A stretch of DNA of 64,000 nt, from IMG/VR virus record IMGVR_UViG_2925939204_000001, one strand, 5' to 3'. Made by a program: the position numbers and the translations under genes. Under the pieces are notes generated by a model, which was not told where the DNA came from, made no database searches, and saw only the letters and a program-made list of their open reading frames with translations. Each line of letters opens with the position of its first letter. Position 1 is the stretch's first letter. Of the stretch, positions 4,568 through 63,350 are shown in pieces. Source of the stretch: a virus. Taxonomy: Duplodnaviria; Heunggongvirae; Uroviricota; Caudoviricetes.

Positions 4568-4589
4568 AAAATCACAATCTCCCGAAAAT
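4568..4589 (+). promoter_or_regulatory. late-promoter-like element AAAATCACA-N7-GAAAAT
   Basis: One of about eight intergenic copies of AAATCACA followed 7 nt later by a -10-like hexamer; upstream of 4619 operon. Confidence 0.35.
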
Positions 4590-4618
4590 CTTCCTTTCGA
4601 TACCTGACAGATCGACCT

Positions 4619-5422
4619 TTGAGGATGCTTATGGGCCGTTTTGACGAATGGTTTGCTGACGATGCAAACCTGGCAAGTAAGGAGTCAGAACATGACAGCA
4701 CGCAGAGAGAAACGCCAGCGCCGATTGAAGCGAATGCAGGAGGCGCGCCGGAACATGGCAATACCGGTTCGGATTCATTCAGCATTCTGGAAGAGCAACC
4801 CGCCGCCAAAGCTGATAGCCATGATAATTTTGCTGATAGCAACGGTGGCCTTACTCCGGATGCTGGCGAATCAGATATAGCCATACTTCCATCTTCCCTG
4901 GCTGGCAGAGAACCGACTCCACAGTTAAAAGCACGCTATAACGGGCATAAAGCCTTTAACGACCAAATCCGCGCAGACTGGATGCTGATTATTGAATCCA
5001 GCCCAGACGCGTTTCAGGCTCTCTTATATCGACCAGATGTTGGCACATATGGGGTAGTCAGCGACGAAACAGGAGAAGAGTCATTCACTGAACTGGATAA
5101 CAACCAACGCGAACTGACTTACCAGGAACCTGAAATCGTTTATGTGCTGGATAACCCTGACGGGCGTGACTCTTTCCATGCGATTGACGCAGACGGTGAG
5201 CAGGATGGCTTAACCGATGATGTTCTGATTCTGCGTATTGCAGCAAATAACGTCCCCGTCGGCTCAATTCTTGAATGGAATGAAGAGATGGTAAACGGCG
5301 TAGCGCGCCGCTGGTGGTACGTGCACCGTATTTTTAGCTACGGCACACAGCATGTTGGTTCGCTTTACTACTGCATACCTGCCAGGAATTTTGATACGAC
5401 TCAAAACGGAGTGATCGAATGA
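4619..5422 (+). CDS. acidic protein, probable virion/baseplate-module component (267 aa)
   Basis: GAGGA SD before ATG; D/E-rich N-terminus; first gene of a four-gene overlapping plus-strand operon. Confidence 0.5.
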   Translation: MRMLMGRFDEWFADDANLASKESEHDSTQRETPAPIEANAGGAPEHGNTGSDSFSILEEQPAAKADSHDNFADSNGGLTPDAGESDIAILPSSLAGREPTPQLKARYNGHKAFNDQIRADWMLIIESSPDAFQALLYRPDVGTYGVVSDETGEESFTELDNNQRELTYQEPEIVYVLDNPDGRDSFHAIDADGEQDGLTDDVLILRIAANNVPVGSILEWNEEMVNGVARRWWYVHRIFSYGTQHVGSLYYCIPARNFDTTQNGVIE

Positions 5423-6186
5423 CTTCAAATAAAACCCTCCTGGCGCGAACAGGTGAATGGCAAACCTCACGTACAGGAAAATTCCAGACCACGGGCTTTG
5501 AAAACGTGGATAACGCGTTTGCGACGCTAATCAGCAACATTTTTTCTGATATCTTACTGGTGGCCCCCGCGCCGGAAGAAAAACGCTTTGCGTCATTCCT
5601 GAATCGTCCACCAGCAGAGCGTGTCTATGTGGCCCGTTTCGACAATGCGATCGAGTTTCTTAAAGCAGTTCGTCGCGCAAATGCCGGGCAAGGGAGAAAA
5701 CCTGAAAACCAGAACATTAACCGGGATGCTCTCCCCCTGGTCAATATCTCACGCACTATGGATATCAATTATATCAACGATGATCAGCAGATTGACCGCA
5801 AAAAAGTAGCCAGTTTTTGCGAACCGGATACCGGAATGCCTTTAGCAGAACTGGAATACACCCAGGCCATTCTGACGTATGACGTTACGTTAATGGCAAC
5901 TGATAAAGCGACCATGAGTCTGATGTGTAATTCGCTGGGCGCACGGCTTCGCCTGATGACAGGTACACAATTTGAAGCAACCACTCACCTTGTTCGTGTC
6001 CCGGTCCCGCTGATTTGCTCGATACAGGATGCCAAAGAAGTCGGCTTTACGGATGTTTCAGCACCAATTGGAGAAGAGCGTATTTATGCCACACAAGCGC
6101 CGATAAGTGTGATTGCAGACGTGATCACAGCATGGGAGTTGGACGCAAAACGTATTATTACCGAAACCTCGATATCTATGGGGTGA
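5419..6186 (+). CDS. hypothetical protein, tail/baseplate module (255 aa)
   Basis: 4-nt start/stop overlap with upstream gene (translational coupling). Confidence 0.5.
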   Translation: MTSNKTLLARTGEWQTSRTGKFQTTGFENVDNAFATLISNIFSDILLVAPAPEEKRFASFLNRPPAERVYVARFDNAIEFLKAVRRANAGQGRKPENQNINRDALPLVNISRTMDINYINDDQQIDRKKVASFCEPDTGMPLAELEYTQAILTYDVTLMATDKATMSLMCNSLGARLRLMTGTQFEATTHLVRVPVPLICSIQDAKEVGFTDVSAPIGEERIYATQAPISVIADVITAWELDAKRIITETSISMG

Positions 6187-6189
6187 TAA

Positions 6190-7170
6190 GTGGCCCAGGA
6201 GTTACAACAATATTTTCTACAGTCAGTGCTCATTAACGATAACAAAGTGCCACGAGACTGGATTTTTACCGCAGTATATGTAGAAAAAACCAGCCTCAAA
6301 GCCCCTTTGCTAAAACTGGAAATTCATGACGCTACCGGCACCGTAATTGATGACTGGAAAGCCAAATACGGTGCATCGCTGGTGGCTGAAATGGGCGATC
6401 CAAACGGTAATGCAGGCACTTTTAAAACAGATTTCTTTGTTACGTCTGCAATGCTGGCTGGTGATGTTGTTACCGTTATTGCTGTCAGTGAAGACGTGCG
6501 CAGGTTTAAGATCCCCTCCCCGCGCACAAATTTACATACCAACAAAACACCAGACGCTATATTCAAGGCATATTCCGGCAAACTTAAAATTACCAGCAGC
6601 GTGCTAAAACGCGCAGTTACATATCATCTGAATGCCGGTGACAAACCGTCAAAAATGCTTTCGGAGATAGCGCGAGACAAAGGTGCATTGTGTTGGGTAT
6701 GTCGGGGGGAATTTAACTTTTACACCCTGGCTGATCTGATGAAGCAAACGCCATCATTTACCTACGAGGGGAATAACCCTAAAGCAGAATACACTTTGTC
6801 CAAAATGCGCCTACTCCAACAGGAACATGCGACAACAGCAAAGAATCAATATCGTTTTGTTGGGTATTCCATGACCGATGGCTACGTCGAATATGGCGAT
6901 AGCTCACTCCCAGTGCGTTATATATCCGACTCTGATATGGAAACTCTTCGCAATATGCAGCTGTCTCTCGTCCCCAAAATGGATATAGAAGTCGCAGGCA
7001 ATCCTGATATAAAACCGGGGATGGTAATAGAGATTATCGTATACCGCTATGACCAGGAAAACCGCATTGATGAATCAATGCCCCGTAAGCTGATAGTAAA
7101 AAATGTTGCGCACTTTGAGGACCGCGTAGGCTACACAACACGAATGATATTGGGAGTGCCTAACAAATGA
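6190..7170 (+). CDS. hypothetical protein, tail/baseplate module (326 aa)
   Basis: Operon context; no motif recognised. Confidence 0.5.
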   Translation: MAQELQQYFLQSVLINDNKVPRDWIFTAVYVEKTSLKAPLLKLEIHDATGTVIDDWKAKYGASLVAEMGDPNGNAGTFKTDFFVTSAMLAGDVVTVIAVSEDVRRFKIPSPRTNLHTNKTPDAIFKAYSGKLKITSSVLKRAVTYHLNAGDKPSKMLSEIARDKGALCWVCRGEFNFYTLADLMKQTPSFTYEGNNPKAEYTLSKMRLLQQEHATTAKNQYRFVGYSMTDGYVEYGDSSLPVRYISDSDMETLRNMQLSLVPKMDIEVAGNPDIKPGMVIEIIVYRYDQENRIDESMPRKLIVKNVAHFEDRVGYTTRMILGVPNK

Positions 7171-7830: not shown

Positions 7831-7872
7831 CATTTGTGTTAGATAATTAATATGTATTTTCTAACACAAATG
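7831..7872. promoter_or_regulatory. operator-like 13-bp perfect inverted repeat CATTTGTGTTAGA-N16-TCTAACACAAATG
   Basis: Arms 7831-7843 and 7860-7872; AT-rich spacer TAATTAATATGTATTT; 8 nt upstream of rdgC start. Confidence 0.6.
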
Positions 7873-7879: not shown

Positions 7880-8785
7880 ATGAGATCAGTCGCTTTCAAA
7901 AATATCTTCATCTATCGTCTTTCACGCGAAGTTAGCTGGGATACTGCAGAAGTAAATGCAGCCCTTAGCAAGTTTGTGTTTACCCCATGCGGTTCTCAGG
8001 ATATGGCTAAAGCTGGTTGGACCTCCGTTCTTGGTGACAACCTCACCCATGAATACCAGGGTTTTCTTCTGATACAGCATAAACGAGAGGAAAAAATCCT
8101 ACCTTCTCAAGTGCTCAAAGAAGAGTTACAGAAAAAAATCCTGACACTTGAAGAAGAGCAAGACAGAAAGCTGAAGAAGACCGAAAAAGATTCGCTGAAG
8201 GATGAAGTGCTTCACTCTCTTCTTCCTCGTGCTTTCACGAGAAAATCACTCGCCAAAATCCTGATCGACCGCAGCAACCATCTGGTATTCGTTGAGGCAA
8301 GCAGCGCCAAAAAGGCAGAGGACCAGCTGGCTTTATTGCGAAAATCGCTCGGCAGCCTGCCTGTCATTCCATTCACACCACGCGAACCGCTGGAAATTAC
8401 AATGACCGAGTGGTTTAAAAACGGCTTCCCTGCCGGATTTACAGCAGGTGAAGACGCCACATTAAAGGGTCTGCTCGATAATGGTGGTGCCGTTCGCTGC
8501 AACAAAGTTGATCTACAGTCCGACGAGATTATGTCTCACATTGAGGCGGGGAAAGTAGCTACGACCGTTGCAATTAACTGGATGGACCGCGCGTCGTTCA
8601 GAGTCAACGATGATATGAGTATCAAAGCCCTGACATTCTGTGATGATCTCTATGACCAGAACGACGATATCGACCGGGAGGATGTAGCACAACGATTTGA
8701 TGCTGATTTCGTGCTCTTTACGGGCGAATTATCTGCACTGTTTAACGCGCTGGTGGAGGCCATTGGCGGTGAAGCAGAACGTTAA
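7880..8785 (+). CDS. rdgC: recombination-associated protein RdgC
   Basis: Near-colinear match to E. coli RdgC ([51 protein letters not shown]-terminal [16 protein letters not shown]...GGEA). Confidence 0.9.
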
Positions 8786-10925
8786 CCTTCGATATGGTTC
8801 AGTTTGCAGTGGAATTGAAGCCGCGAGCATTGCCTGGGAACCGTTGGGTATGCGTCCGGCGTGGTTTGCTGAAATTGAGCCTTTTCCATCTGCCGTTCTT
8901 GCGCACCGCTGGCCTCATATCGCCAACCTTGGCGATATGACAAAACTTGCCAAAAAAGTCCTGGCTGGGGAAATCGAATCCCCTGATGTGCTCGTCGGGG
9001 GAACACCTTGTCAGGCATTCAGTATCGCGGGATTACGTGGTGGGCTTGATGATGAGCGCGGCGCGCTAACTTTGAAGTATGTGGAGCTTGCAAATGCAAT
9101 TGACGACAAACGGTCTGAGTCCTTCCTCAAACCGACAGTTATCGTCTGGGAAAATGTCCCAGGAGTCCTGTCATCGGCAGATAACGCCTTCGGATGTTTC
9201 CTTGCCGGATTGGCTGGAGAAGATGCACCATTTGAACCAGGTGATCGACCTGAATCAGGAAAAAGTAACGCGTTCTGGCGGTGGGATGGCAAAACCGGTT
9301 GCCATGCTCCAAAGTGGCCGCAGTGTGGTTGTATTTATGGACCGCAGCGAAAGGTGGCCTGGAGAATACTTGATGCCCAATACTTCGGAGTGGCACAACG
9401 ACGCCGACGCGTGTTTGTTGTCGCAAGTGCTCGAACAGACCTCGATCCCGCAACGGTACTTTTTGAGTTCGAAGGCGTGCGCCGGGATATTGCGCCGAGC
9501 AGAGGCGAGGGGAAGGAAGTTGCCGGAAATGTTGGAAATGGCATTAAAAGCGGGAGCCATTGGGATAACCCTGTAAATCCTCACCCGACACTTGCCCGAT
9601 CGCACAATACCGGCGGGACGGGTGCAAGCAACCAGGAGATTTTTTCACAGCGCGGAAGTGGGCTTGTCGGTGCTTACCGGATGGTAGCATTTGGTGAGTA
9701 TGCGGATGATGAGGCGGCTTCCACGGTCAAGGCCAGAGATTTTAAGGATGCAACCGACCTGGCTGTTTTTGACAGTGCGAACGTCGGAGTGGCAGTACGT
9801 CGCTTAACGCCTGTCGAGTGCGAACGCCTGCAGGGCTTTCCTGACGGGCACACGTTGATCCCTACGGAAAAGCGTAAAAAAGTTTCTTCAGATGAACTGG
9901 CATACCTTCGCAATCACTATCCAGATTTAAGCGAAGAAGAGGCCGCGATGCTTGCAGCTGACGGACCGCGTTACAAAGCGATCGGCAACAGCATGGCAGT
10001 TCCTGTTATGCAATGGATAGGGTGTCGCATTCTTGCGACCGTAGCGGATAAACAGCAAAAAACAATAAATACCATTACCTACACAAGAAAACTCCGGACT
10101 CCGGATGAATATGAACGCCCAATATTCAAATGGGTAGGCGGTAAATTCTCAGAGTTGCCTACAGTGCTTGAGCATCTACCACACGGCAAGCGGTTAATAG
10201 AACCATTCGTTGGTGGCGGTTCCGTATTTACGAATGCAGGATTTCGCCACAACCTGCTTAATGATATTAACGGTGACCTGATTAACTTCTATCAGACATT
10301 GCAGCGAGAGGGACATTCGCTCGTCACGCTGGCATATAGTTTTTTCAAAAATTACAACAACGCTGACGCTTACCTCGAAGTGCGCGAGGCATTTAACAGA
10401 GGAAAGTATGACCAGCTACATCATGCTGCCGCCTTTTTGTACCTTAATCGGCACTGTTTTAATGGCGTAACGCGGTACAACCAAAATGGCGAGTTCAACG
10501 TGGGGTATGGCAAATACAAAGCGCCCTACTTCCCACATGCAGAGATGGAGGCATTTTTGGCTGATGACGTACTCAAAAACACGTCCTTTGTATCAGGTGA
10601 CTTTGCTGGCGTCATCGAGGCGGCTGGTGAAGGCGATGTGATTTTTTGCGATCCGCCGTATGAACCGCTGCCGGATACAGAAGGGTTTACCAGTTATTCA
10701 GGAAATAGCTTCCGTTTCGACGAACAGAAACGGCTGGTATCTCTATTGGTGGAAGCCCACCAGCGCGGCGCTAAGGTAGTGATAACAAATAGTGGTGCGC
10801 CAAACATCCGTGAACTATATGAACGAAACGGGTTTAAAGTACATCATATGGCAGCCAGACGGTCGGTGTCCTGCAAGGCGTCAACACGTGTAGTTGCTAA
10901 CGATATAATTGCAATAATGAAGTAA
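8697..10925 (+). CDS. dmt: bifunctional DNA methyltransferase: N-terminal C5-cytosine MTase fused to C-terminal Dam-like N6-adenine MTase (P1 Dmt-like)
   Basis: C5 motifs [23 protein letters not shown] (PCQ), VWENVPG (ENV); Dam-like KWVGGK and FCDPPYEP (DPPY). Start uncertain: in-frame GTG at 8769 or TTG 8763 more likely than 8697/8700, which overlap rdgC by ~86 nt. Confidence 0.85.
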
Positions 10926-10973: not shown

Positions 10974-12635
10974 TTAACCTAACTTCGCCCAGGTATCACG
11001 CAGCCCAACGGTGCGGTTAAATACCGGTTTTTCCGCCGTAGAATGGCGGCTGTCGAGGCAGAAATAACCTTCACGCTCAAACTGGAATGCTTTACCCGCT
11101 ACCGCTTCTTTCAGCGACGGTTCAGCAAAACCCTGTTTGATCACCAGCGATTCCGGGTTAATCACCGACAGGAAATCATCCGCAGCACCTGGGTTCGGCA
11201 CGCTGAACAGACGATCGTACAGGCGGATTTCAACCGGCAGCGCATGTGCCGCGCTCACCCAGTGAATAACGCCTTTCACTTTACGACCATCTGCCGGATC
11301 TTTGCTTAAGGTGTCGGCGTCATAAGTACAGAAGATGGTGGTGATATTGCCTTCGGCATCTTTCTCCACGCGTTCAGCCTTAATGACGTAAGCATTACGC
11401 AGACGCACTTCTTTACCCAGCACCAGACGTTTGTACTGCTTGTTAGCTTCTTCGCGGAAATCGGCGCGGTCGATCCAAATCTCACCGCTAAACGGCACCT
11501 GACGGCTACCCATTTCCGGTTTGTTTGGATGGTTCGGCATGGTGACCATTTCGCCTTCGCCCTGGTAGTTTTCGATAACCAGTTTCACCGGATCGATAAC
11601 CGCCATTGCGCGCGGCGCATTTTCGTTGAGATCTTCACGGATGCAGGATTCCAGCGACGCCATCTCAATGGTGTTGTCCTGCTTGGTCACGCCGATGCGT
11701 TTGCAGAACTCACGAATAGAAGCCGCAGTGTAACCACGACGACGCAGACCGGAAATGGTCGGCATACGCGGGTCATCCCAGCCTTCAACGTGCTTGTCGG
11801 TCACCAGCAGGTTCAGCTTACGCTTGGACATCACAGTGTATTCCAGATTCAGGCGCGAAAATTCGTACTGGCGCGGGTGAACAGGAATGGTGATGTTGTC
11901 CAGTACCCAGTCATACAGACGACGGTTGTCCTGGAACTCAAGCGTACACAGAGAGTGCGTAATACCTTCCAGCGCATCGCTGATGCAGTGGGTGAAGTCG
12001 TACATCGGGTAGATGCACCACTTGTTGCCAGTCTGGTGATGTTCAGCAAACTTAATGCGGTACAGCACCGGGTCGCGCATCACGATAAACGGCGAAGCCA
12101 TGTCGATTTTCGCACGCAGGCAGGCTTTACCTTCTTCAAAACCACCGGCACGCATTTTTTCGAACAGCGCCAGGTTCTCTTCAACGCTGCGGTCGCGGTA
12201 CGGGCTGTTTTTACCCGGCTGCGTCAGGGTGCCGCGGTATTCGCGGATCTGTTCCGGCGTCAGTTCGTCAACATACGCCAGGCCTTTGTTGATCAGTTCA
12301 ACAGCATAGGCATGGAGTTTGTCAAAATAATCGGAGGAGTAACGGATGTTGCCAGACCAGTGAAAACCTAACCATTCAACGTCGTTTTTAATCGACTCGA
12401 CGTACTCGATATCTTCTTTTACCGGGTTAGTGTCGTCGAAACGCAGGTTGCACTGGCCTTTATAGTCCTGGGCGATCCCGAAGTTCAGGCAGATAGATTT
12501 CGCATGACCAATATGCAGATAGCCATTCGGTTCCGGCGGGAAACGGGTATGTACTGTGGTGTGCTTACCACTGGCCAGATCTTCATCGATGATCTGACGA
12601 ATAAAGTTAGTCGGGCGGGCTTCTGCCTCACTCAT
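10974..12635 (-). CDS. glnS: glutaminyl-tRNA synthetase (host-like, full length 553 aa)
   Basis: Essentially colinear with E. coli GlnRS from [20 protein letters not shown], incl. class I HIGH motif (PNGYLHIGH) and VMSKR (KMSKS-type) motif. Confidence 0.95.
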
Positions 12636-15601: not shown

Positions 15602-15686
15602 GCAAAAATATTCCGAAATTTAACTCTCCGTTTGAATGACGAAATAACAAAGTGATGACAATAGGAGGATAACCAGGAGGTGAAGA

Positions 15687-15971
15687 ATGAGCGCAATAGC
15701 CACCAGCGACACCCTTTGTTCTGGTCACGGAGGATTTCCGCCGCGACTGGTAGCTGAAACCGTTCCCTGGTTCACCGTTAACGGTAAGCCAGTTGTTGTA
15801 GATGGTGCCATGTTTCCCAGTCACACTGACGGTAACAGTGCACATCCAGGGGCAGCTGTATCGACGCGAGTATGGTTTTCGATAGGTGGAAAGGGAGTTG
15901 TCTGTGTAGGCGATCCGCTTTCTTGTGGTTCTGTTATCGCCAACGGCGAGGATATTTTTCAGGTTGCATAA
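15687..15971 (+). CDS. PAAR-like (spike-tip-like) small protein (94 aa)
   Basis: Repeated NGKPVVVDGA / GGKGVVCVGDPLSCG pattern typical of PAAR folds; very strong SD (AGGAGG); stop overlaps next start (TAATG). Confidence 0.45.
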   Translation: MSAIATSDTLCSGHGGFPPRLVAETVPWFTVNGKPVVVDGAMFPSHTDGNSAHPGAAVSTRVWFSIGGKGVVCVGDPLSCGSVIANGEDIFQVA

Positions 15972-19500: not shown

Positions 19501-19512
19501 TGTGTTAGAAAA
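19501..19512 (+). promoter_or_regulatory. operator-like motif TGTGTTAGAAAA
   Basis: In divergent intergenic region between 19487 gene and capsid gene; adjacent to AAATCACA element at 19521. Confidence 0.4.
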
Positions 19513-19575
19513 CTAAAATTAAATCACATAACAACATGCGTGTTAATAGATTTTATTTTACTAAACCTATTGACT

Positions 19576-19596
19576 AAATCACAAAGTAGGTATTGT
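19576..19596 (+). promoter_or_regulatory. late-promoter-like element AAATCACA-N7-TATTGT
   Basis: ~50 nt upstream of capsid gene start. Confidence 0.4.
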
Positions 19597-28213: not shown

Positions 28214-28234
28214 AAATCACACACTCCCTATCCT
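28214..28234 (+). promoter_or_regulatory. late-promoter-like element AAATCACA-N7-TATCCT
   Basis: ~40 nt upstream of 28273 gene. Confidence 0.4.
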
Positions 28235-29148: not shown

Positions 29149-32100
29149 ATGGCGAGCACTCCATATGTCAAAAGCCCTGGAAGAAAAATACAAAGCTCAA
29201 GCCGGGAAACGTTGATCGCCGCTGGCAAAAGAGAGGTTATTTTGAAAGAGAATAAAGACCGTATCGCAATAATTGACGCTATTCAGGGGGCGAGCACAAA
29301 CGAACTTAACGCTCTTGCTGAGATCAAAGACGCCATTCTCTCTGGTAGAGGGTCTATAACTCAACTTGGTGAAAATCAAGGTAATGTAAGTCAAAGACTA
29401 TCCCGTAGACTCATAGCAAGCGAACCCTATGTCTCTGATGATGCCAAGAATACCCAAGCTAACCCATATATAAAACGCCTTCCGATGAAAAAAGGGAGGA
29501 CGCAGATCAACAACGGAGAAGAACGTCTCATTGTTGCAACCAACACATCAGAGCGCGTTCATTTTGCGTCATCACGCCAGTCAGCCCAAAAGTTGAAAGG
29601 TTCTGTGCCAGTAGCCGCTAATTCTGCTCCTCTTGAACCACAATCCCCCCAAAGCCAAAAAGGACCGCTTCGGGATAGTAACGGACGCTTTGTATCCCAG
29701 AAAAACAACGAAGATATAGCCAGAAAAAAAGAATGGCAGAAAGCACGTAAGGCTGACGCCAAACTACAAGAAGGCTTCCTCCGAAAATTAGGCTCCATTA
29801 TAGGGGTAGATGGCAATCAGTCTTCCAGTGAAGAGTCTTTAACAGATGCCGCAGGTGTTGGCGCTGGTGGTCCGTTGTGGATGGCTGCTCGCGGCATGTA
29901 CGACATTACTAAAGAGATCACAGGTAAAGCAGAATCTCTTAAAGAATGGGTAGAAAAGGGGAAAGGTGAGGCTTCACCTTCGAAAGCGACATCTCCAGCT
30001 ATCACTTATCCGGCGGTGGTGAACACTCAAAAAGCAACCTCTGCAACAGCATTTAATACTGCTGTTGAGACAAAATCAGCACAAGCAGTAGAAGAGCAAA
30101 CAAAAATTCTTCAGACCAATGACAACAAAATCATTGATGGTCTGGAAAATGTCTCCGACGAAGTAGTTAAGCTACGCAAATCAGTATCTTCTGGGGATAA
30201 GTTCGGCTTAAGTGATCTCTGGAAAAATCGAGCAAGCAGAAGAAATAAAATCAATATTGGCGATCAGGCTGGTAAAAATAAACGGAACAAACCGAAAAGG
30301 AAAGGTCGCAATCTGGGGAAAAAAGCCCTTTCTGTTGGTGAAAAAGCCGCTGCCGGAACCGCTGCTGCTGGAGCTGGTGCCGGAGCTGCAAAGGCTGTTA
30401 AAACAAAGGTTAGTAAAGCCAAAGACATCAGCACCACAAGCGACGCATCTAAGGGTATTGCTAAAGAAACAAAAAACACAACAAAGGCAGTTAAGCCAGC
30501 AGGTGTTGTTGCCGAAGAGGCCACAATTAAAACAGGTGAAACTGTTGCAAAGAAAAAAACCGAATCCTTAGCCCTCAAAAGTGCTGCAAAAATAGGTGTT
30601 AAATCAGCTGCTTCTACAGCTGCAAGAGCTATCCCGATCATCGGCTCGGTGGCTATGGCGGGATATGACGCTATAGATGGTTACACTGATACAGATGCGC
30701 AAAAGGCAGCCTTTGGATTAAGTGACGATGATGCTGTATCCGAACAGCAAAAAACGGCTTACGCAACAGCTAATGTGCTCGATATGGGGGGCTTGGTGTC
30801 GGGCGCAACTAACTTGATAGGGAAAGGAATTTCTGCGCTAGGATTTGAAAGAGCAGGTGAAAAACTTCAGGATTTTGATACCGGAGATATTGCTCGTGGT
30901 GTTAACGGCGCGGTAGATATCACCAAATCTGTTTTTGGTAGCCTTAAGGATACATTTTTATCCACTGACGAAAACACGAAACAAGTAAAAAAAGCTGTTG
31001 AAGACGGCACCAAAAAAACTGTCGATGCGATTCATTCTCTAGGTGAACAATTACAAGGTGGGCGTAATGGCGAGGATGGAGTTGGTGAGCACGGGTATAC
31101 TTCTCCAACTGAATTTAGTGCACCTGCCAACAACACCATTGCAGCGGATCTGAATATTGGTGGCAGCAACGCTAAAAACCGCAATTACCGAAATAATAAT
31201 CTCGGCAATCTTGTTTTTGCCAACCAGGAAGGGGCGATACTGGAATCGCCAAATGCAAAAGGTGAACAACGTTTTGCGCGATTTAACACACCTGAAGAAG
31301 GGATCAGGGCACTGGCAAACCAGGTTTCCAGCTATTACAACGGCACCAGTGCCGCAGCGGGATATCAGAAGTTGCAGACGGTATCCAGCATCATTTCAAA
31401 ATGGGCACCGCCAAATGAGAACAATACTAACCAATACATTGATAACGTCAGTAAATATCTTGGTGTATCGCCTAATGAAAAAATAGATGTCAGCAAACCA
31501 GAGGTTATGACGCAATTAGTTCGTGCAATTGCGACGAAAGAAGGCGGAAATCCGGCAGTTAATAATGAGTTCATTAAGAACGCACTTGGAGCATTTAACA
31601 CAAACACTGGTCGATGGGAGGGACAATTCTCTGACGAAACATTGGCGCGGATTAATAAAATTCAGAAAGAAAATGGTGGTCAGCTAATTGCCCGCGATTC
31701 GCAATATAGTGTTGGTCGTAAGGTAAAATATGCTAATGGAAAATCTCCAGCTCAACCAGTTTTGAATGCCGTTCCGACAGCAACACAACAGCCAATTGAG
31801 GTTGCACAACATGCCCAGGCAGTCAAAAAGCCACAAAAAACAGGCAACCAACCACAACCGATTAATCCAGAGAGCGCTGATGTTAATACCGGCTCTCCAT
31901 CGAGTTTGCTTGAGCGGTTAATCGCAATAAATGAAAGCGGAATCAGTGGTGCAAGTAATTTATTTGGCGGCGCGGCTACCAGCCTTGCTGGAACAAGTCT
32001 GGACCTGGTAAAGGATTTTGCGTTGGCTACTTCGTTTGGTTCTATATCTTCGCTTTCCGAAAAAGCGAAAGGAATGGATCAGGCTCTTACTGAAAAGATA

Positions 32101-36049: not shown

Positions 36050-36070
36050 AAATCACAAACTGAGCATACT
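36050..36070 (+). promoter_or_regulatory. late-promoter-like element AAATCACA-N7-CATACT
   Basis: Preceded by hairpin TTCCCCC-GCATTT-GGGGGAA; upstream of 36109. Confidence 0.4.
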
Positions 36071-40169: not shown

Positions 40170-40643
40170 TCTTAATACCCCAGCGCGATAAAACAACAAT
40201 CTTTGGTGCCCTCTCCGGATGGCGACCAGTTCTGAATACTGATATGCGTTCTGCTGGCAATACGCACATTCATCGCGGCATTGTAGCCAGATGTTCCACG
40301 GTTTCCGGTCGCAAATAAGCCTGCATAGGGAAAAGCAAATGGTAAGCCGCTCTAACTGCTATACGACCAAGGCTTCATCTCTGGAAAACATACGCAGAAC
40401 CTTTTTTAACCCTTGGCGTTTAGCCTTTTTGCCACTCGCTTTGCCCTCAAAAATTAGCTCACATCCTGCGCTTTCAAGGGGGCGTTGCAAAGCGGTGTTT
40501 TGGTCATTTGTTGATATGCGAATGTATCTAATAAGCATATGTCTCCCCTTGTATGTTAAGGAAGGAGATTTTAGAAGATGTCCTGTAAGGAAATAACAAA
40601 CTGACTAAGGTAGTGGCGCATTAGATGTTATTTCTGGAGGGGT

Positions 40644-40970
40644 ATGTTTGCAGATTATGAAAATCTGGCTGTAGTAGTCATAACATCCCTACTAAGTGGA
40701 ACCGGCGTATTCCTTCTCGGAGTTAGAGACGGGCGCATTTCTGCGTCCCTGCTCAATCTTGCGAGTGAATTGTTTACTGCGGTAACAGCCGGGCTTGCGG
40801 GGTATGGGGTGGCGGTTAGCCAAGAATGGCCTGAAGGTATCATTTTCTGCGTTGTTCTGATTGCCAGTAACAACGGTAGTGAAATTTTACAGGGCTTGAA
40901 GTCCAGAGCTAGTAACGTCTTGAATCTCTTAAGCGTAATAGCGAATGGGGGAAAAGGTGGAGAGAAATAA
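40644..40970 (+). CDS. small three-TM membrane protein, holin-like (P1 LydA-like?)
   Basis: 108 aa with three hydrophobic segments; first gene of operon. Confidence 0.4.
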   Translation: MFADYENLAVVVITSLLSGTGVFLLGVRDGRISASLLNLASELFTAVTAGLAGYGVAVSQEWPEGIIFCVVLIASNNGSEILQGLKSRASNVLNLLSVIANGGKGGEK

Positions 40971-44375: not shown

Positions 44376-45730
44376 AAACCCCGTCCTTCAGGGCGGGGAT
44401 ATAAGGCGCGGTTTTCCACCTAAATTTTTTTGTTTAAAATAGCGGGATGAAACGACTACAGGCATTTAAATTCCGGTTAAGACCAGATGGTCAACAGGAG
44501 CGAGAAATGAGGCGCTTCGCGGGAGCTTGTCGTTTCGTTTTCAATCGTGCTCTGGCGCTTCAGAATGAGAATCATGAAGCCGGGAACAAATATATTCCTT
44601 ACACAAAAATGGCTTCCTGGCTGATTGAGTGGAAAAATGCCTCTGAAACGCAATGGCTTAAAGATTCTCCCTCACAGCCATTGCAGCAATCACTGAAAGA
44701 CCTTGAGCGGGCCTACAAAAATTTCTTCCAGAAGCGTGCGGCTTTCCCCCGATTCAAAAAGCGGGGACAGAATGATGCATTCCGCTACCCGCAGGGCGTT
44801 AAGCTCGATCAGGAAAACAGCCGTATTTTTCTGCCGAAACTGGGCTGGATGCGCTACCGGAACAGCCGTCAGGTCACGGGTGTTGTGAAAAATGTCACTG
44901 TCAGCCAGTCCTGCGGTAAGTGGTACATCAGTATTCAGACAGAAAGTGAAGTATCAACTCCGGTTCACCCTTCAGCATCAATGGTCGGGCTGGATGCTGG
45001 CGTGGCTAAACTCGCCACGCTGTCAGATGGCACAGTCTTTGAGCCTGTAAACAGTTTTCAGAAAAACCAGAAGAAGCTGGCGAGACTTCAGCGACAGTTA
45101 AGCCGCAAGGTCAAATTCAGCAACAACTGGCAGAAGCAGAAACGCAAAATACAGCGACTGCATTCCTGTATCGCAAATATCCGCAGGGACTACCTTCACA
45201 AAGTCACAACGACCGTCAGCAAAAACCACGCAATGATAGTCATTGAGGATTTGAAGGTCAGCAACATGTCAAAGTCAGCAGCGGGTACGGTCAGCCAGCC
45301 GGGGCGCAATGTCCGGGCAAAATCAGGTTTAAACCGTTCGATACTGGATCAGGGCTGGTATGAAATGCGCCGCCAGCTTGAGTACAAGCAGCTCTGGCGT
45401 GGCGGTCAGGTGCTTGCTGTTCCGCCAGCGTACACAAGCCAGCGTTGCGCGTACTGTGGTCATACAGCGAAAGAAAATCGCCTGTCACAAAGTAAATTCG
45501 AGTGCCGGGCATGTGGATATACAGCGAACGCCGATATAAACGGCGCTCGTAACATTTTAGCGGCGGGACACGCCGTTCTTGCCTGTGGAGGGATGGTGCA
45601 GTCAGGCCGCCCGTTGAAGCAGGAACCCACCGAAATGATTCAGGCAACAGCCTGAGCGTAGCAGGAATCCATGTTCTTGAGGGCGTGGAGGATGTCAACT
45701 GTTCTCACATAAATCACACACTTTTTACAC
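44376..45730 (+). mobile_element. IS200/IS605-family element carrying only tnpB (IS609-like); boundaries approximate
   Basis: Subterminal hairpin CCCCGTCC-TTCA-GGGCGGGG at 44379-44398 before tnpB; no tnpA ORF. Confidence 0.6.
44447..45655 (+). CDS. tnpB: IS605-family TnpB (OrfB) RNA-guided nuclease-type protein
   Basis: Near-identical to E. coli K-12 InsQ/YdcM as recalled; C-terminal zinc-finger [25 protein letters not shown]. Confidence 0.9.
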
Positions 45731-45731
45731 T
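45711..45731 (+). promoter_or_regulatory. late-promoter-like element AAATCACA-N7-TACACT
   Basis: ~30 nt upstream of 45762 gene, near IS right end. Confidence 0.35.
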
Positions 45732-47158: not shown

Positions 47159-47179
47159 AAATCACATACTGATTATGCT
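47159..47179 (+). promoter_or_regulatory. late-promoter-like element AAATCACA-N7-TATGCT
   Basis: ~35 nt upstream of 47212 gene. Confidence 0.4.
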
Positions 47180-47211: not shown

Positions 47212-48894
47212 ATGGCAACGAAAGACAAAAACAAAGGCTTTCTGTCAGCATTGAAGAAAGCCTTCAACGGTGGTGATGTTACGCCCGCCGATCCGGTCGT
47301 TTTTACGAGCGGGCATAGTGTCGTTGCTCGTTCCGGCCTGTCTGCTTTACGTCCAGGTATACTGGGGAGCAACAGCGATGGCATGACGAGTGCAGCAGAT
47401 TCAATTTCTTTATCCGCTGAACTGCCCGGCGAGCGCCTGCAAAAGTACAACATCCTGGAAACGATGGCTAAAAGCCCGACTATCTCGACGGCTTTAAACA
47501 TTCACATTGCACATGCGCTTGCGCCTTCAAAAAAAACCGGACAAGCATTCATCCTTTCGCCAAAGGATGGTTCCGATGCCGAGGCAGTAAGTAGATGTGA
47601 AGAGTTAACCGCTGATTTGGGGGCGATGATTAATGACGGACTTCCTTCATGGGCCATGATTATGGCTATCTTTGGGGTGTCTTATGTCCGACCTTATGCT
47701 GAACAGGGCAGGGGGATAACAGGCATTGAGTCCAGTTATTACACTCTGCCACACTTCGTCCAGGAGTTTTATCGTGGTAGCCAGCTGGTAGGTTTCAGTG
47801 GTGATTACATTCTGGATACGCATAGTTTGCGCAGAGTAATAACCGAACCGTGGAATCTGGTTTCCATGAAAAATCCCTATTGGACGCCACAGCATAAAGT
47901 TATTCCGGTTAGCTACGGCACAAAAGGGTACTCACTGTTAAGTGATCAGGCTGATAAGCCGTTAATGGAGACGCAGAATTACGGAACTTCATTCCTGGAA
48001 TACAGCTATGAACCTTACCTTAATTTATGTGCTTCGCTCGCCGCGCTGAAATCAACGCGAAATAATGCAGCCAAAATTGACCGCCTGATTGCTCTTACGA
48101 CGAACACACTGGACCCGGTTAATGCGGCGAACTATACGCGTGGCGTCAGCCAGGCATTGAAGCGTCATAGTGACCTGGTGGCGCAAAGGTCGATTAATGC
48201 CAACGCTATTCCGACTGTGCTTAACCATCTGATACCTGTTATGGGAGACGGGAAGAACGGCATCACCATTGATACGCAATCCATACCCGCAGATATCAGT
48301 GGTATCGAAGACGTTATGTTTCACCTCCGGCAGCTTGCTGCAAGCCTCGGCATTGACGCAACAATGCTTGGCTGGGCTGATCAGATGAGCGGAGGGCTTG
48401 GAGAAGGCGGCTGGCAGCAAACTGCTATCCAGGCTGCATTGCGTGCGAACTGGATCAGACAGGCCGCCCAGCGAACTATTTATCGGCTTCTGGACATTCA
48501 CCTCGCTTATAAATACGGCAAGGTTTACACCGAAACAAACCGCCCTTATGACGTGCAATTCAACTCAATGAACACTGCTATCCAGGAAGAGGAAAACCGA
48601 GAACTGGATGCACGCGCCAACTTTGTTGCTGTCATCTCCCAAATTATGGACCAGATCCAGAACAACCCGAAACTGGCTGGTAGTGACGCGTTTATGCGTT
48701 ATCTGTTCACCGAGCAGTTGCACATCGACGATGACACTCTCAACACCATGATCAAAGAGTTTAAGGCGAATGAATCAGAGCAAAACAGCGAGCATGGTAT
48801 GTACGAATCCGCGCCGTTGTCGTCCGGTGACGATCCGGAAAACTGGACGCCAGAACAGTTAATAAACTTTGCAAAATTTGTGATGAGCAATTAA
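47212..48894 (+). CDS. portal protein candidate (560 aa)
   Basis: Size and position before a protease/scaffold-like gene; no motif confirmed. Confidence 0.4.
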   Translation: MATKDKNKGFLSALKKAFNGGDVTPADPVVFTSGHSVVARSGLSALRPGILGSNSDGMTSAADSISLSAELPGERLQKYNILETMAKSPTISTALNIHIAHALAPSKKTGQAFILSPKDGSDAEAVSRCEELTADLGAMINDGLPSWAMIMAIFGVSYVRPYAEQGRGITGIESSYYTLPHFVQEFYRGSQLVGFSGDYILDTHSLRRVITEPWNLVSMKNPYWTPQHKVIPVSYGTKGYSLLSDQADKPLMETQNYGTSFLEYSYEPYLNLCASLAALKSTRNNAAKIDRLIALTTNTLDPVNAANYTRGVSQALKRHSDLVAQRSINANAIPTVLNHLIPVMGDGKNGITIDTQSIPADISGIEDVMFHLRQLAASLGIDATMLGWADQMSGGLGEGGWQQTAIQAALRANWIRQAAQRTIYRLLDIHLAYKYGKVYTETNRPYDVQFNSMNTAIQEEENRELDARANFVAVISQIMDQIQNNPKLAGSDAFMRYLFTEQLHIDDDTLNTMIKEFKANESEQNSEHGMYESAPLSSGDDPENWTPEQLINFAKFVMSN

Positions 48895-52617: not shown

Positions 52618-52646
52618 ATGCCCCGGCCTGGCCGGGGCTTTTTTCA
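52618..52646. terminator. bidirectional terminator (GCCCCGGCC-TG-GCCGGGGC + TTTTTT)
   Basis: 9-bp GC stem with T-run; between convergent genes. Confidence 0.7.
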
Positions 52647-53129
52647 TGCCTCATTAGTTGAGGTTGCTGCGTCTCCGACTGGTAACAGAGCGGTATTGCG
52701 TGGTTCGCCAGCAGGCCAGCGATAGCCAGACACTCTTGATGTTGGGAATGCGCGAATATTAACCGCATCCCCCTGGTTCCCACCCAGGACAAGCAGATCG
52801 CCATTGGCGCGGCGTCCGACAACGAAGCCTACGTGCCCACCGCCTACGCGGGTAAATACAACGATACATCCGTATGCCGGTGTATCTAATTTCTCGCCCC
52901 AATCCAGATAGGATTTTGCCGACTCAAATCTTGTTGAGCGGATGCCTACACGTTCCAGCATTGCACCGACAAATGCTGCGCACCACGGCGTTTCATCGTC
53001 TTTAATTCCGCCGCGCTTGATGTCGCGCCAGAACTGAACGATTTCAGGGTTGTGTTTAGCGCCTTTTATTTCAGTCAGGCCAATGTGCTTACGGGCTTCA
53101 ATTAGCCAGCGAGGTTCAATGTTTGCCAT
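52644..53129 (-). CDS. NlpC/P60-CHAP-like putative cell-wall hydrolase (161 aa)
   Basis: WCAAFVGAML (Cys) ... GCIVVFTRVGGGHVGFVVG (His) ... LGGNQGDAV arrangement typical of Cys-His peptidoglycan peptidases. Confidence 0.55.
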   Translation of the reverse strand: MANIEPRWLIEARKHIGLTEIKGAKHNPEIVQFWRDIKRGGIKDDETPWCAAFVGAMLERVGIRSTRFESAKSYLDWGEKLDTPAYGCIVVFTRVGGGHVGFVVGRRANGDLLVLGGNQGDAVNIRAFPTSRVSGYRWPAGEPRNTALLPVGDAATSTNEA

Positions 53130-53204
53130 ATTTTTCTCCCGGTCATGGGTTAATAAGTAGGCAAACTATGGGGAGTATGTGATTTTGACGGTAGTATCGT
53201 CCCC

Positions 53205-56200
53205 GTGAAAATAACATTCTCCATACCCTCTCAACCGTACCGCATAGCGGAATTTTTACGGTTTAGAGGGGGAAATCCTTTGGACAAACTACTTCATTCA
53301 ATCAGTGAAGCCTCCAGCTTAGGCGAACTGATTGAAATTGTTAGTCGGTTGCATAAATTACGAGCTGTTGCGACCTTTGGCGTCAGGAAAGCCGATGGCG
53401 TCAGTATTCAGAAAACACGCCGGGCAGCAAACAATGCCGCAGTAAATCTTCTTAATTCCCTTCCGCCCGGCTTCGATGGGGCGAAATTAACTGACGAACA
53501 ACGTCAGATTCTTGCCGGGTATACCGGTGAAGGCGGCCTGACAGATGGTGAGGGCAGCCAATACGAATACTACACGCCACAGTTTATGGCTGAAGGTATA
53601 TGGGATCTGTTTGCTGACTACGGTATTGATGGCGGGCACGTACTGGAACCATCAGCGGGCACAGGTATTTTCCAGGAGACAAAACGACAGGGCATGATAA
53701 TGACCAGCGCCGAACTGTCTCCGATTTCCGGTCGAATAAACCAGCTTTTGCACCCGGAAGACGATGTGAATATCGGGGCGTTTGAGGCGCTGGCGGCGAA
53801 AGACGCAATGTATGATCACGCTGTTGGTAACGTACCGTTTGGTGAAGGGCGTTCCGGTGTCGCCGGGCTTGATCCGGCATATGCAAACGAGAAGAACGTT
53901 GGCAATTACTTTGTGCTGCGCACGATCGACAAGGTTAAGCCTGGTGGGCTTATCGTATTGGTGGTGCCGAATGGCATGACCGATGGTGCGAAATATAAAA
54001 AATTGCGCGATAAAGTCAGCCGTAAAGCGGAATTTTTGGGCGCGCATCGTATGCCTTCCGGTACGTTCAGTGAATCAGGTACAGATACCGTGGTGGACGT
54101 ATGGGTATTGCGTAAACACCCGGAAGCCTTCCTGGAGATGATCCCCGATACGGATGATTCGACGCTCAAATCGGCAAACGTCCTTTGGGATACCTTCCTC
54201 AAAGGAAAATGGTTTACAACCGAAGGGAAGCGATTTGTTTACGGCGACATGGAACGTACCAGCTTCCGCAATACCCTGGTGGTGAAAAAAGACGGTCGTG
54301 TATCCAATGAGTCGATGAAAACCGCGCTATCTCGTCGCTTTGATAGTCGCATCAATTGGGATTTGCTCGGCGTAACTACTCAGGCATGGCAGGGCGCGAA
54401 AGTGGGCGATAAACGCCTTGTAGGCGGTATCTGGCATGAGTTTGATGGTCTGAAATGGGTTAAGGACACGACAACCAAATCCTCCGCGCTTGATGTAAGT
54501 CGATATGGTGTTTCGACGTTTGGCGATCTGCAGATCGCGTTTCAGTCAACAAATGGCATTCTGGCTTTGTCATGGGACCAGATATCGGCGATCGCGTCTG
54601 ACTACCCATCGGTTGTCAGTGATGAAGTGGCAGCAATGATTCGCTTTGCTGGCAAGCAGCGAGAAAAAGACAGGGAGCGCGTTATGCGCGGTGCACTGAT
54701 AGGTCAGTTGATCAACAAGGCACTTGATTTGCGTAACCTGGGGGTGAACGTTGATGACAAACTGGCAGATGCATCCCGCCTGGCGGCAGCAGAAGTTGCG
54801 AAGTATGGACCACCGCACGCGATTAAGCTGAATGGGCTTGCTGAAGCTGGCGCTAAAAACTGGATGACGTTCACTGGCAATGTGAAACAGGATGGTTCCA
54901 CTTCTGACCTTCTGGCAGGGCGACTTGATGTAACGGATGGTGCTGCCGGTATTGACTTTACGCGTCCTGAACAAGTGATAGCACATCTTTTTAGTGATGT
55001 AGCCCTTAATCCTATAACGCTTGGCGACTTTCGTGAGGCGTTTGCTGGTGAACTGCCAGAGGACGACGACGCGGCCCTTGAATACCTGGCGAAATTTGAT
55101 GATATCGCTATTGATGGGTATGGCTGTCTGCTGCCGATGGACCGCGCCACCAGCGGCGATGTTGCAACCAAAACAGCACTGCTGGTGGGCTGGCGTGATG
55201 CGTCAACAGGTGAGCAGAAAGCGAACTTTGAGCGTCAGTTGGCGAAAATCGAAGAGAAACGCATTTTCACGCCACTAAATAAAGTCACCGTTAATCTGAA
55301 TGCCCGCTGGCTGGATCGCCGCTTGATAAAAGAGTTCCTGGCAGAGCAGGGCTATGACGAGTTTAAGTACACTGAACCTGATCTGAAGGTCGTCGATGGC
55401 ATTCTGGTATCTCCGGACGATTACGAAGGTAAGGACGGTGTATTTACCGGCTACCAGCTACGAACCGTAAACGGCAAAAACGGGAATGAGTTCAAGAAGG
55501 CCAACAATAAAGACGGCTTCCTGAACCAGTTAGAAAACTACCTGAACGGTGTTAAACCGCGTGGGCAGAATGCTAACGAGTACCTGGATAAAATTGCTCA
55601 ACTGGAAGTTAGCTTTAACGACTGGTTACGCACCCACCCGCAGGCGGATCAGATAGCCCGTGACTATAACGACGCATTCAATGGTTTCATTCCGTTCACA
55701 CATTCTGACGCACCGCTAGGCCTGGAAGGGATTAGTGGAAAGCGCATTCCTCTGACTTATCAGAATGAAGAAGTTCGCCGCTTGTCAGAAGATGGGCGTG
55801 GCATCATGGGATTTGGTACCGGGCTGGGTAAAACCACGACCGCGCTTGCGCTTGAGGCGTATAACTTCGAAACAGGTCGCACTAAACGCACGTGTATTGT
55901 TGTTCCGAAGGCGGTTTATCAGAACTGGTATCACGAGGCACAGAGTTTCTACAGTGCTGATGCCTTCGCCAATATGATGTTTATCGGTTTGGATGAAGTT
56001 CGTGATGACGGCGGAAATATTCTTACCGCGCCAGTGCTTGATGAAAATGGCGAACCACGCCTCGACAGTAACGGGCAGCCTCTTACCAGAAATGTTGTGA
56101 AAGAGTCCGCCAGCGCCGTTATCGTTCAGCGCATGAACATGATCCCGTCGTCAAATTGGCGAACGGTCATCATGACAAAAGAACAATTCGCGTCTATCCC

Positions 56201-61495: not shown

Positions 61496-61696
61496 TTGCG
61501 TTTACTTAACGTGGCAGAACTTATCCCTGCAGGAACTAATGCTATCGCTCGTCGTCGCTCATGGCAGCAGGCTCTATGTATTGAGATCTCGAAACGTATC
61601 AATGGAAGTTTTGAAGCTCGCAATATTGTTACTGGCGATAAGGTTCACATAACCCCGGAAAGTGCAAGCGCTGATGATTGGGAGTTTGTACATTGA
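61496..61696 (+). CDS. DUF2829-like small protein (66 aa; Tad2-like candidate)
   Basis: ...AIARRRSWQQ...ITPESASADDWEFVH. Confidence 0.45.
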   Translation: MRLLNVAELIPAGTNAIARRRSWQQALCIEISKRINGSFEARNIVTGDKVHITPESASADDWEFVH

Positions 61697-61992: not shown

Positions 61993-61999
61993 TTGCATA

Positions 62000-62030
62000 A
62001 AAACCCGCCAATTAGCGGGTTTTTTGTTTA
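62000..62030 (+). terminator. rho-independent terminator (AAACCCGC-CAATTA-GCGGGTTT + TTTTGTTT)
   Basis: Perfect 8-bp stem with T-run right after stop. Confidence 0.7.
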
Positions 62031-62066
62031 TTGCATCTTCCGATACTGTCATCAAACTAATAAAAT

Positions 62067-62077
62067 ATGTTAGAAAA
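62067..62077 (+). promoter_or_regulatory. operator-like motif ATGTTAGAAAA
   Basis: ~30 nt upstream of 62106 gene. Confidence 0.4.
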
Positions 62078-62105
62078 CTAATTTAACAAAGTAACGGGAA
62101 TAGCA

Positions 62106-63314
62106 ATGAGTCAACACACTGATACTTCTAATCTGGAAATTATCTCGACAGCAATTGAAACGCTGCGCACACAAATCGCTCTTATACAGAAACGGAATCC
62201 GGGTGATGACCTGTCAAAGCGACTGCACGAGAGTGTCATTGCCACTACAGATAACCTGGTGGCGGAAATCAACAAGCTGCTTGATGATGGGGCAGTTGAT
62301 TACAATAAGCTGGTGGATCAGTTTGAGGAATACCAACAAGCCGTTAATGATGGCTTGATCCGTTTTTCACAAGTCACAGGCGTATCAGCGACAGTTGAAA
62401 GCCTGGGTGATGCAGTTAATCAATTTGCCGCGAATATGCGTAATGAGATCGGCAATCTGGAAGCGCGTCTTGAACAGGCAAATACACTGCGTAAATCTGC
62501 CGAAGCCGATTTGAACCGTTACAAAAAAGACTATCCGCCCAGCCTGACAAAGCGGCTGGATGTTGCGGAGAAGGATAACCGCACGCTGAAAAGAGAGCGC
62601 CGGGAACTAAAAGAGCGTTTAACCAAGCTCAATCAGAAATGCATTGATTATCAAGGCGAAGGCGTCACACTGCGTAAAAAGTTGGCTACAGCGCAGAGCA
62701 TTATCGAAACATTAAAGCGAGAGTGCTCACAGCTTGGTCACGATCTGAACCGTGCTTGTGGCATGGGACAAAGACCAGAGACATTTCCACTTATGTATGA
62801 TGGAAGGGATGCCATTGCCTACATCCATGAGTATCCACACGGCCTGGTTGCGGAAACTGGGCAGCGTGGCGAAGCACTGCTGACGGCTAATTACCATCAA
62901 CAAATCAGAACCAATCGCCTGTTAACGATGGATGTGATCCCATCGGTATGGGGAACGCCGCTTTACTATCGCCTGCCGGGCTTCGAAAAGGACTGGAATA
63001 CCGACATAGACGAATGTCTCGCAGATAAAATTATGGCGTACCTGGAGACGGATTTTCCGCGCTTATATCGCCGGATTATGGACTCTAAGGATGCGCCAAT
63101 CGATGAATTAAAAATGCGTCCGGAGACGCTGGAGGCAATCAAGCAGACGGAGTTTGATACTGTATTCAGTGTGGCCTGCATTCCAAGCTGTTTCCATGAA
63201 AGCATCCCGTTCATGCAAGGAGATCGTCGTCAGGAAATCATTGACGCTTGCCGGGTATGGGCGAACGAATGGGATAAGAAGAATGGGGGTGTAGAAGATC
63301 TTTACGGGAAATAA
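62106..63314 (+). CDS. hypothetical protein with N-terminal coiled coil and C-terminal globular domain (402 aa)
   Basis: Operator-like motif in its upstream region; no motif recognised. Confidence 0.55.
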   Translation: MSQHTDTSNLEIISTAIETLRTQIALIQKRNPGDDLSKRLHESVIATTDNLVAEINKLLDDGAVDYNKLVDQFEEYQQAVNDGLIRFSQVTGVSATVESLGDAVNQFAANMRNEIGNLEARLEQANTLRKSAEADLNRYKKDYPPSLTKRLDVAEKDNRTLKRERRELKERLTKLNQKCIDYQGEGVTLRKKLATAQSIIETLKRECSQLGHDLNRACGMGQRPETFPLMYDGRDAIAYIHEYPHGLVAETGQRGEALLTANYHQQIRTNRLLTMDVIPSVWGTPLYYRLPGFEKDWNTDIDECLADKIMAYLETDFPRLYRRIMDSKDAPIDELKMRPETLEAIKQTEFDTVFSVACIPSCFHESIPFMQGDRRQEIIDACRVWANEWDKKNGGVEDLYGK

Positions 63315-63315
63315 T

Positions 63316-63350
63316 ATGTTAGAAATCTAAAATCACAATTCGAATGTATT
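63316..63350 (+). promoter_or_regulatory. operator-like motif ATGTTAGAAA adjacent to late-promoter-like AAATCACA-N7-TGTATT
   Basis: Same juxtaposition as at 19501-19528. Confidence 0.4.

Follow-up and report, generated by a model that had tools for sequence, protein, structure and literature searches.

Probable late promoters of P1-like design, with a different recognition box, in a D6-like plasmid prophage

We examined a 64,000-nt stretch of tailed-phage DNA (IMG/VR record IMGVR_UViG_2925939204_000001, hereafter the window), in which the short sequence AAATCACA recurs upstream of virion genes. The original prediction, made from the letters alone, took AAATCACA followed 7 nt later by TANNNT for a family of activator-dependent late promoters resembling those of phage P1. 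A 5-kb probe from the window matched Escherichia phage D6 with 98.9% identity, and alignment of the whole window to D6 gave collinear blocks of 87-99% identity, the window plus strand corresponding to the D6 minus strand. Over a 10-kb window segment, plasmid unitig_3 of E. coli AR_0118 (NZ_CP020051.1, 91,291 bp), referred to below as the source plasmid, is 100% identical. The D6 annotation is, gene by gene, that of a P1 relative, and D6_4 is annotated there as 'late gene transcriptional activator, similar to P1 lpa'. We identify the window as a D6-like plasmid prophage of the P1 family.

Side-by-side reading of the sites led to a longer element, AAATCACA-n-ACT-nnn-(T/C)AnnnT. A weight-matrix scan of the window recovered the six good sites listed originally, together with a minus-strand site at 53165-53185, three AAATAACA variants at 40591 (lydA), 15642 (upfC) and 53209 (darB), and a weak candidate at 949. 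The initial list was correct for these six sites but had missed four, those before the endolysin gene (53185, minus strand), lydA, upfC and darB. Its coordinates were exact, apart from an offset of one nucleotide at the first site, where AAATCACA starts at 4569 and not at 4568. The probable late promoters are the following, each written as box, gap and -10 hexamer:

4569..4589 (+), late promoter of the gene 7-24-6-5 tail/baseplate operon: AAATCACAATCT-ccc-GAAAAT; ATG at 4631, 41 nt past the hexamer.
15642..15662 (+), variant late promoter of the upfC (PAAR)-upfB operon: AAATAACAAAGT-gat-GACAAT; ATG at 15687, 24 nt past the hexamer.
19576..19596 (+), late promoter of the major capsid gene (homologue of P1 gene 23): AAATCACAAAGT-agg-TATTGT; GTG at 19646; position of P1 LP23.
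28214..28234 (+), late promoter of the pmgB-sit-pmgA-bplA-16 tail operon: AAATCACACACT-ccc-TATCCT; TTG at 28273; counterpart of P1 LPsit.
36050..36070 (+), late promoter of the tail-fibre operon R-S-U: AAATCACAAACT-gag-CATACT; ATG at 36109; counterpart of P1 LPs.
40591..40611 (+), variant late promoter of the lysis/dar operon (lydA-lydB-hdf-darA-ddrA): AAATAACAAACT-gac-TAAGGT; ATG at 40644; counterpart of P1 LPdar.
45711..45731 (+), late promoter of the ddrB-like gene: AAATCACACACT-ttt-TACACT; TTG at 45762; directly 3' of a TnpB insertion.
47159..47179 (+), late promoter of the portal (prt) and head protease (pro) genes: AAATCACATACT-gat-TATGCT; ATG at 47212; counterpart of P1 LPpro.
53165..53185 (-), late promoter of the CHAP-domain endolysin gene (52644-53129, minus strand): AAATCACATACT-ccc-CATAGT; counterpart of P1 LPlyz.
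53209..53229 (+), variant late promoter of darB (TTG at ~53280): AAATAACATTCT-cca-TACCCT; divergent to the endolysin promoter.
949..969 (+), tentative weak late promoter of gene 26 (ATG at 1001): ATTTCACACCCT-gca-TACAGT; position weight matrix (PWM) score 9.0.

The two strands of the window hold 12 copies of AAATCACA, against 3.35 +/- 1.75 expected. Four matches to the strict pattern AAATCACA-N7-TANNNT were obtained (19576, 28214, 45711 and 47159), against 0.05 expected; for two other genes to which it had been attributed, the hexamer is GAAAAT (4569) or CATACT (36050) and not TANNNT. The refined pattern AAATMACANNSTNNNNANNNT, that is AAAT[C/A]ACA-NN-[C/G]T-N4-A-N3-T, has ten matches (4569, 15642, 19576, 28214, 36050, 40591, 45711, 47159, 53165-53185 on the minus strand, and 53209) against 0.08 expected, and none of 100 shuffles reached ten. 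Matrix matches scoring at least 17 also number ten, versus 0.09 per dinucleotide shuffle, a test with some circularity, since the matrix derives from those same sites. Half of the ten hexamers are TANNNT, and the remaining five (CATACT, CATAGT, GAAAAT, GACAAT and TAAGGT-like variants) keep A2 and T6. Over 38 sites in five genomes the consensus reads AAATyACAaACTsmnTAynnT, with A0, A5, C6, A7 and T20 (T6 of the hexamer) invariant and A16 (A2 of the hexamer) present in 37. The box is 12 nt long and asymmetric, AAAT(C/A)ACA-n-A(C/G)T, with a 3-nt gap to a sigma-70-like -10 hexamer of the kind found in P1-type late promoters. The best -35-like match is at most 4/6 at every site except the capsid promoter, which carries TTGACT at 15-nt spacing; the claim that no recognisable -35 accompanies the element holds everywhere but there.

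Each of the ten copies in the window is intergenic and reads in the direction of the following gene, whose start codon lies 24-50 nt beyond the end of the element. By the D6 annotation, none of the 11 sites in that genome overlaps a coding sequence, although non-coding DNA makes up only 10.2% of it. Ten of these D6 sites end 24-51 nt before a co-oriented coding sequence, a configuration for which 1.6% of position-strand combinations qualify; the eleventh, the mat site, is 136 nt upstream of its ATG and falls just outside the window. The genes that follow the window sites are all virion, lysis or anti-restriction genes, and the element stands directly upstream of morphogenesis and lysis operons. 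Over 27.7 kb of the source plasmid, almost all of it beyond the window and mostly given to maintenance, immunity and other non-virion genes, the best matrix score was at most 9.1.

Conservation was followed in Escherichia fergusonii pEF-4, Pantoea pEuc3, Leclercia pE1_003 and Cronobacter phage JK004. In pEF-4, whose Lpa is 80% identical to that of D6, the element is found at all orthologous promoters and before lpa, in diverged flanks: the 4569 site is kept as AAATCACAATCTccaGACAAT under a diverged upstream flank, the 28214 site has an identical core in a diverged flank, the counterpart of the 53209 site is AATTAACACACTccaTACCCT, and the 15642 site is kept both there and in D6. Pantoea pEuc3 (Lpa 43% identical) carries AAATTACA-nAC(T/C)-nnn-TAnnnT before mat, the PAAR operon, the holin and endolysin genes, pro and pacA. 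Leclercia pE1_003 (Lpa 35% identical) carries AAA(T/A/C)CACAnACT before the PAAR, bplB, holin and endolysin genes, and weaker forms before the capsid gene, pmgB and R; its PAAR gene is preceded by AAACCACAACCTcccTATCCT, and its equivalent of the 28214 site is AAATTACAGACCgctTACCCT. The holin genes of Pantoea and Leclercia are preceded by AAATTACAGACTcctTACGCT and AAATCACAGACTcccTACCAT, respectively, and the core of the endolysin promoter is kept in pEF-4, Pantoea and Leclercia amid unrelated flanks. The weak 949 candidate occupies the position of P1 LP26 and is kept in pEF-4, yet the whole region is conserved there too.

The activator gene that the original prediction left to be identified lies outside the window: lpa is at 74814-75206 of NZ_CP020051.1, and its product is identical to D6 Lpa at 130/130 residues. 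D6 Lpa scores 192 bits against Pfam PF25716 (BPP1_LPA), matches phrog_1704 and is 31% identical to P1 Lpa; a search of solved structures with the Lpa profile gave no match. The source plasmid has one member of the Lpa family, a predicted cognate activator on the same element, and searches with Lpa gave a single lpa match per genome. In PLSDB, an Lpa of the D6 type is encoded by about 120 plasmids. In the alignment, the D6 clade (NIIRxFVRS, GYxFKVRGR) is separate from P1 (PEFFRRSRAP), both being full-length BPP1_LPA members. The AAAnnACAnACT box is found in the genomes with a D6-clade Lpa (the window, D6, pEF-4, pEuc3, pE1_003 and loci L018-L021), and ACAAGTGACTT in those with a P1-clade Lpa (P1 and JK004, the latter having only ACAAGTGACTT-type sites). 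A profile search of genome contigs with the D6-clade Lpa alignment returned only Pantoea/Enterobacter-type loci. Four further D6-clade lpa loci from these genera have AAATTACAGACTCCwTACCAT placed 33-34 nt before an ORF (open reading frame) of 421-438 aa, which we take to be pacA-like by its size and position, and no P1-type site. Across the genomes compared, box type follows the Lpa clade.

The pEF-4 lpa gene itself is preceded, at ~11123-11143 (-), by a good D6-type late promoter, AAATAACACACTgatTAACAT, located downstream of an operator pair; the same place in D6 (4554-4661) has only the degenerate TTTTAACATTCTcatTATCAT. The presence of this promoter upstream of lpa in pEF-4 suggests positive autoregulation of Lpa and late expression of lpa-pacAB.

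The P1 RefSeq record (NC_005856) annotates eleven late promoters (LPs, LPsit, LP23, LPpro, LPlyz, LPdar, LPmat, LP26, LPpmgL, LPhot and LPpac), each composed of a 9-bp '-22 region', 4 nt and a -10; the boxes extracted from this annotation read (a)ACAAGTGACTT-N4-TANNNT. Seven D6-type sites occupy P1 late-promoter positions, those of LP23, LPsit, LPs, LPdar, LPpro and LPlyz in the window and that of LPmat outside it. Taken with the identity of the element, the promoter geometry, the conservation of the sites, the lpa gene and its covariation with the box, these positions support the activator-dependent promoters first proposed. The repeated AAATCACA-containing element very probably represents the late promoters of a D6-like plasmid prophage, built on the P1 design with a different recognition box and predicted to depend on Lpa. 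It is an expected regulatory element in a lineage-specific form.

Each element comprises the 12-nt asymmetric box, a 3-nt gap and a weak sigma-70 -10 (nAnnnT, usually TAnnnT or CAnnnT), and the box would fill the spacer, roughly from -27 to -16, where a -35 contact is otherwise needed. By homology with P1, Lpa would be made once C1 repression is lifted. It would then bind the spacer box, and the host SspA, associated with RNA polymerase (RNAP), would serve as co-activator, as it does in P1. Sigma-70 RNAP would start about 7 nt past the hexamer, and the head, tail, tail-fibre, lysis and anti-restriction operons would be switched on together.

Several points weigh against this interpretation. 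Recognition by Lpa rests on homology and covariation, because the box is non-inverted and shares ~5 of 8-9 positions with the P1 box. The correlation between box and Lpa is itself phylogenetically confounded, as there are only two deep clades and everything else co-varies with them. No site was found upstream of lpa-pacAB in D6 or in the source plasmid, the degenerate sequence mentioned above being the only trace in D6. The hexamers GAAAAT, GACAAT and TAAGGT are poor.

We consider it improbable that the promoters are read by another phage factor, such as Mat (the 'maturation control' protein) or a second activator, or that they are constitutive promoters devoid of a -35. The box is asymmetric, unlike the inverted repeat of P1, which a different reader would accommodate. 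However, promoters of the same class at the same positions are reported to be Lpa-dependent in P1 (PMC10695390, PMC1891329), and the single lpa match per genome and the tracking of Lpa clade by box type also point to Lpa. Constitutive activity would suit the capsid promoter with its TTGACT, but a weak -10 without a -35 is unlikely to work unaided.

Still less probable is an action of the motif at the RNA level, as a translation or processing leader, or as an operator for a C1-type repressor. The element always lies in 5' regions near start codons, as a leader would, but the box keeps a constant spacing to the A2/T6 hexamer and a variable one (24-51 nt) to the start codon, which suits a promoter and not a ribosome-proximal element. 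The operator alternative draws on two bare copies of AAATCACA adjoining operator-like 17-mers, which had been proposed as late-promoter copies abutting an operator motif:

19503..19519 (+), C1-operator-like 17-mer, TGTTAGAAAACTAAAAT, between the divergent orf52 and the capsid promoter.
19521..19528 (+), bare AAATCACA, without the nACT extension and without a -10; becomes AAAACACA in pEF-4.
63317..63333 (+), C1-operator-like 17-mer, TGTTAGAAATCTAAAAT, downstream of pmgS.
63330..63337 (+), bare AAATCACA overlapping the 3' end of the preceding 17-mer, without nACT and without a -10; no ORF follows.

The 17-mer, TGTTAGAAAnCTAAAAT, is real, since nine copies with at most three mismatches were found against 0.97 expected. 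They have the form TGTTAGAAAAnTAAwwT and lie at 7837, 17495/17508, 19503, 49917(-), 51124, 62068, 63317 and 63473, several as inverted pairs (TGTTAGAAA...TTTCTAACA). In our judgement their positions correspond to P1 C1 operators (hrdC/dmt, immI, repL, rlf and pmgR/pmgS), and they are probably the D6-type C1 operator set. They are, however, a distinct sequence at early-gene positions, and AAATCACA follows only two of the nine and is hence not part of the 17-mer. After removal of the seven full sites, bare AAATCACA amounts to five copies, which is the chance level, and pEF-4 lacks the 63330 copy (AAATTGGCA) but retains the operator beside it. Both bare copies, 19521 and 63330, were rejected both as promoters and as Lpa/operator composites, lacking a -10 hexamer and, in the case of 63330, conservation; their position beside operators is best read as coincidental. 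Lastly, a chance or compositional repeat without function, to which the 5 of 12 AAATCACA copies compatible with chance might point, is effectively refuted by the enrichment of the full element (10 versus 0.08 expected), its perfect placement and orientation, and its retention in relatives whose Lpa is 35-43% identical.

The region following the last of these copies, 63320-64000, comprises ~0.7 kb without a credible ORF, corresponds to the unannotated D6 segment 7850-9085 and contains two operator-like sites. An Rfam search of 63200-64000 returned no family. A weak P1-type-like sequence, AGGTGACTT-AACA-TAGAAT, lies at 63359-63377; it has one mismatch and is not significant alone.

Other features were observed around the promoters. 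Between the late promoter and the ATG of mat, a GC-rich hairpin and then a T-run (GGCCGCCATGTGCGGCCTTTTTTT) occur in the 136-nt leader, which precedes window position 1 (~835-950 of locus L013, on the NZ_CP020051.1 minus strand). This hairpin, which has counterparts of similar form in D6, pEF-4, Pantoea and Leclercia, may be an attenuator or a terminator between promoter and gene. A TnpB of the IS200/IS605 family (44447-45655, plus strand; 402 aa, with OrfB_IS605 and Cas12f1-like TNB domains) separates ddrA from the late promoter of ddrB, and this promoter, downstream of the insertion, is intact; D6 lacks the insertion. The dmt gene (8697-10925, plus strand) is a single ORF of 742 aa, and two separate methylase genes, D6_63 and D6_64, are annotated at the same place in D6.

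The only exact P1-type box in the window belongs to an orphan promoter, in a plasmid whose only Lpa is of the D6 type, near a small ORF on the same strand:

868..888 (-), orphan P1-type late promoter, ACAAGTGACTT-TCAT-TAATCT; PWM score 22.4, with 0 of 300 shuffles reaching 22.
673..807 (-), 44-aa hydrophobic ORF (D6 orf77, phrog_38362) with a GGAG Shine-Dalgarno sequence, 60 nt downstream of the P1-type promoter.

In pEF-4 the orphan promoter is identical at 20 of 21 nt, but the 44-aa peptide is only 52% identical. Plasmids containing orf77 number about 92; their sizes (75-97 kb) and hosts (E. coli, Salmonella and Shigella) are compatible with D6-like elements. In none of the 40 records listed does an annotated feature cover the ORF. 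The reciprocal case occurs in P1, where a D6-type site, AAATCACAAAGT-aca-TACCGT, is located at 31571-31591 (-), 38 nt before the holin homologue lydC, and is kept in SJ46 and vB_EcoM-813R1. The lydC gene was non-essential in a CRISPR interference (CRISPRi) screen (PMC10695390). These orphans are possibly fossils of mosaic exchange, signs of relaxed Lpa specificity, or elements of reciprocal heterotypic trans-activation. The last of these, in which a resident prophage uses a rival's late activator as a trigger, either as a promoter-level rival sensor or in a P2/P4-like manner, seems to us unlikely. If true, the trigger would fire a membrane-damaging peptide, leading to premature lysis or to abortive infection of the superinfecting heterotypic phage.

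No promoter features are annotated in the D6 records MF356679 and AY753669, and the D6 and RefSeq records examined are without late promoters. The searchable literature on AAATCACA, Lpa and D6 does not mention the motif; the D6 genome paper (Gilcrease & Casjens 2018) falls outside that coverage, and the consensus may be published there. The sites amount to a working map of late promoters for D6-like phage-plasmids, elements frequently met in E. coli, Salmonella and Shigella, and would improve operon annotation in such records. They indicate that the P1 supercluster contains at least two co-varying classes of Lpa/promoter specificity, offering a natural system for studying DNA recognition by Lpa and for building orthogonal late-gene switches into vectors based on P1. 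Where P1-like and D6-like prophages circulate together, the orphan cross-type promoters suggest that they may interact at the level of regulation.

P1 is the closest known system. P1 Lpa is reported to bind the late-promoter box sequence-specifically and to act with SspA (PMC1891329, PMC10695390), activating sigma-70 RNAP together with this RNAP-associated host protein (PMC1891329 citing Hansen et al. 2003; PMC10695390). As in the D6-like plasmid, a PF25716 Lpa-family protein is encoded on the same element. P1 promoters likewise keep A2 and T6 in the -10 and have a box in the spacer, centred near -22, replacing the -35; they also share with the D6-type sites the late operons served and the distance from hexamer to start codon (20-50 nt). 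The box is where they part: that of P1, (AC)AAGTGACTT, is a 9-bp inverted repeat with a 4-nt gap, whereas the D6-type box, AAATCACAnACT, is 12 nt long and asymmetric with a 3-nt gap. The defining P1 box, AAGTGACTT at 4 nt from the -10, is not present at the window sites listed above. The match to P1 design that had been proposed therefore stands for a -10 with a spacer box, but not for the sequence, length, symmetry or gap of that box. A hidden dyad, or the P1 box in another register, was also sought; the best alignment, of AAATCACA to AAGTGACT, matched at ~5/8 positions and displaced the boxes by 2 nt with respect to the -10, which is suggestive only. Relative to P1, D6-type elements have extra promoters before gene 7, upfC, ddrB and darB, and P1 LPpac, LPhot and LPpmgL are without counterparts in them.

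P1 Lpa has served as a precedent for the model of Francisella PigR and MglA-SspA (PMC1891329). PigR resembles the P1-type activators in being DNA-bound and acting through an RNAP-associated SspA-family protein, but it is an unrelated activator, with another promoter element, and serves a host virulence regulon.

The late promoters of phage Mu (Plys, PI, PP and Pmom), activated by C, have a weak -10 and a poor -35. As would be the case for the D6-type promoters, a phage activator placed over the spacer/-35 region switches on several late operons. The C protein belongs to an unrelated family and binds a dyad-symmetric site at a greater distance upstream (about -30 to -55); SspA is not known to be involved. 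In P2/P4, the Ogr/delta activators also control multiple late operons, and P2 and P4 trans-activate each other reciprocally. These activators are zinc-finger proteins that bind a dyad near -55 and contact the alpha subunit of RNAP, and neither the sequences nor the proteins are related to those of the D6 case. The P2/P4 pair nevertheless provides a precedent for the late activator of one element firing the promoters of another, which bears on the orphan cross-type promoters described here.

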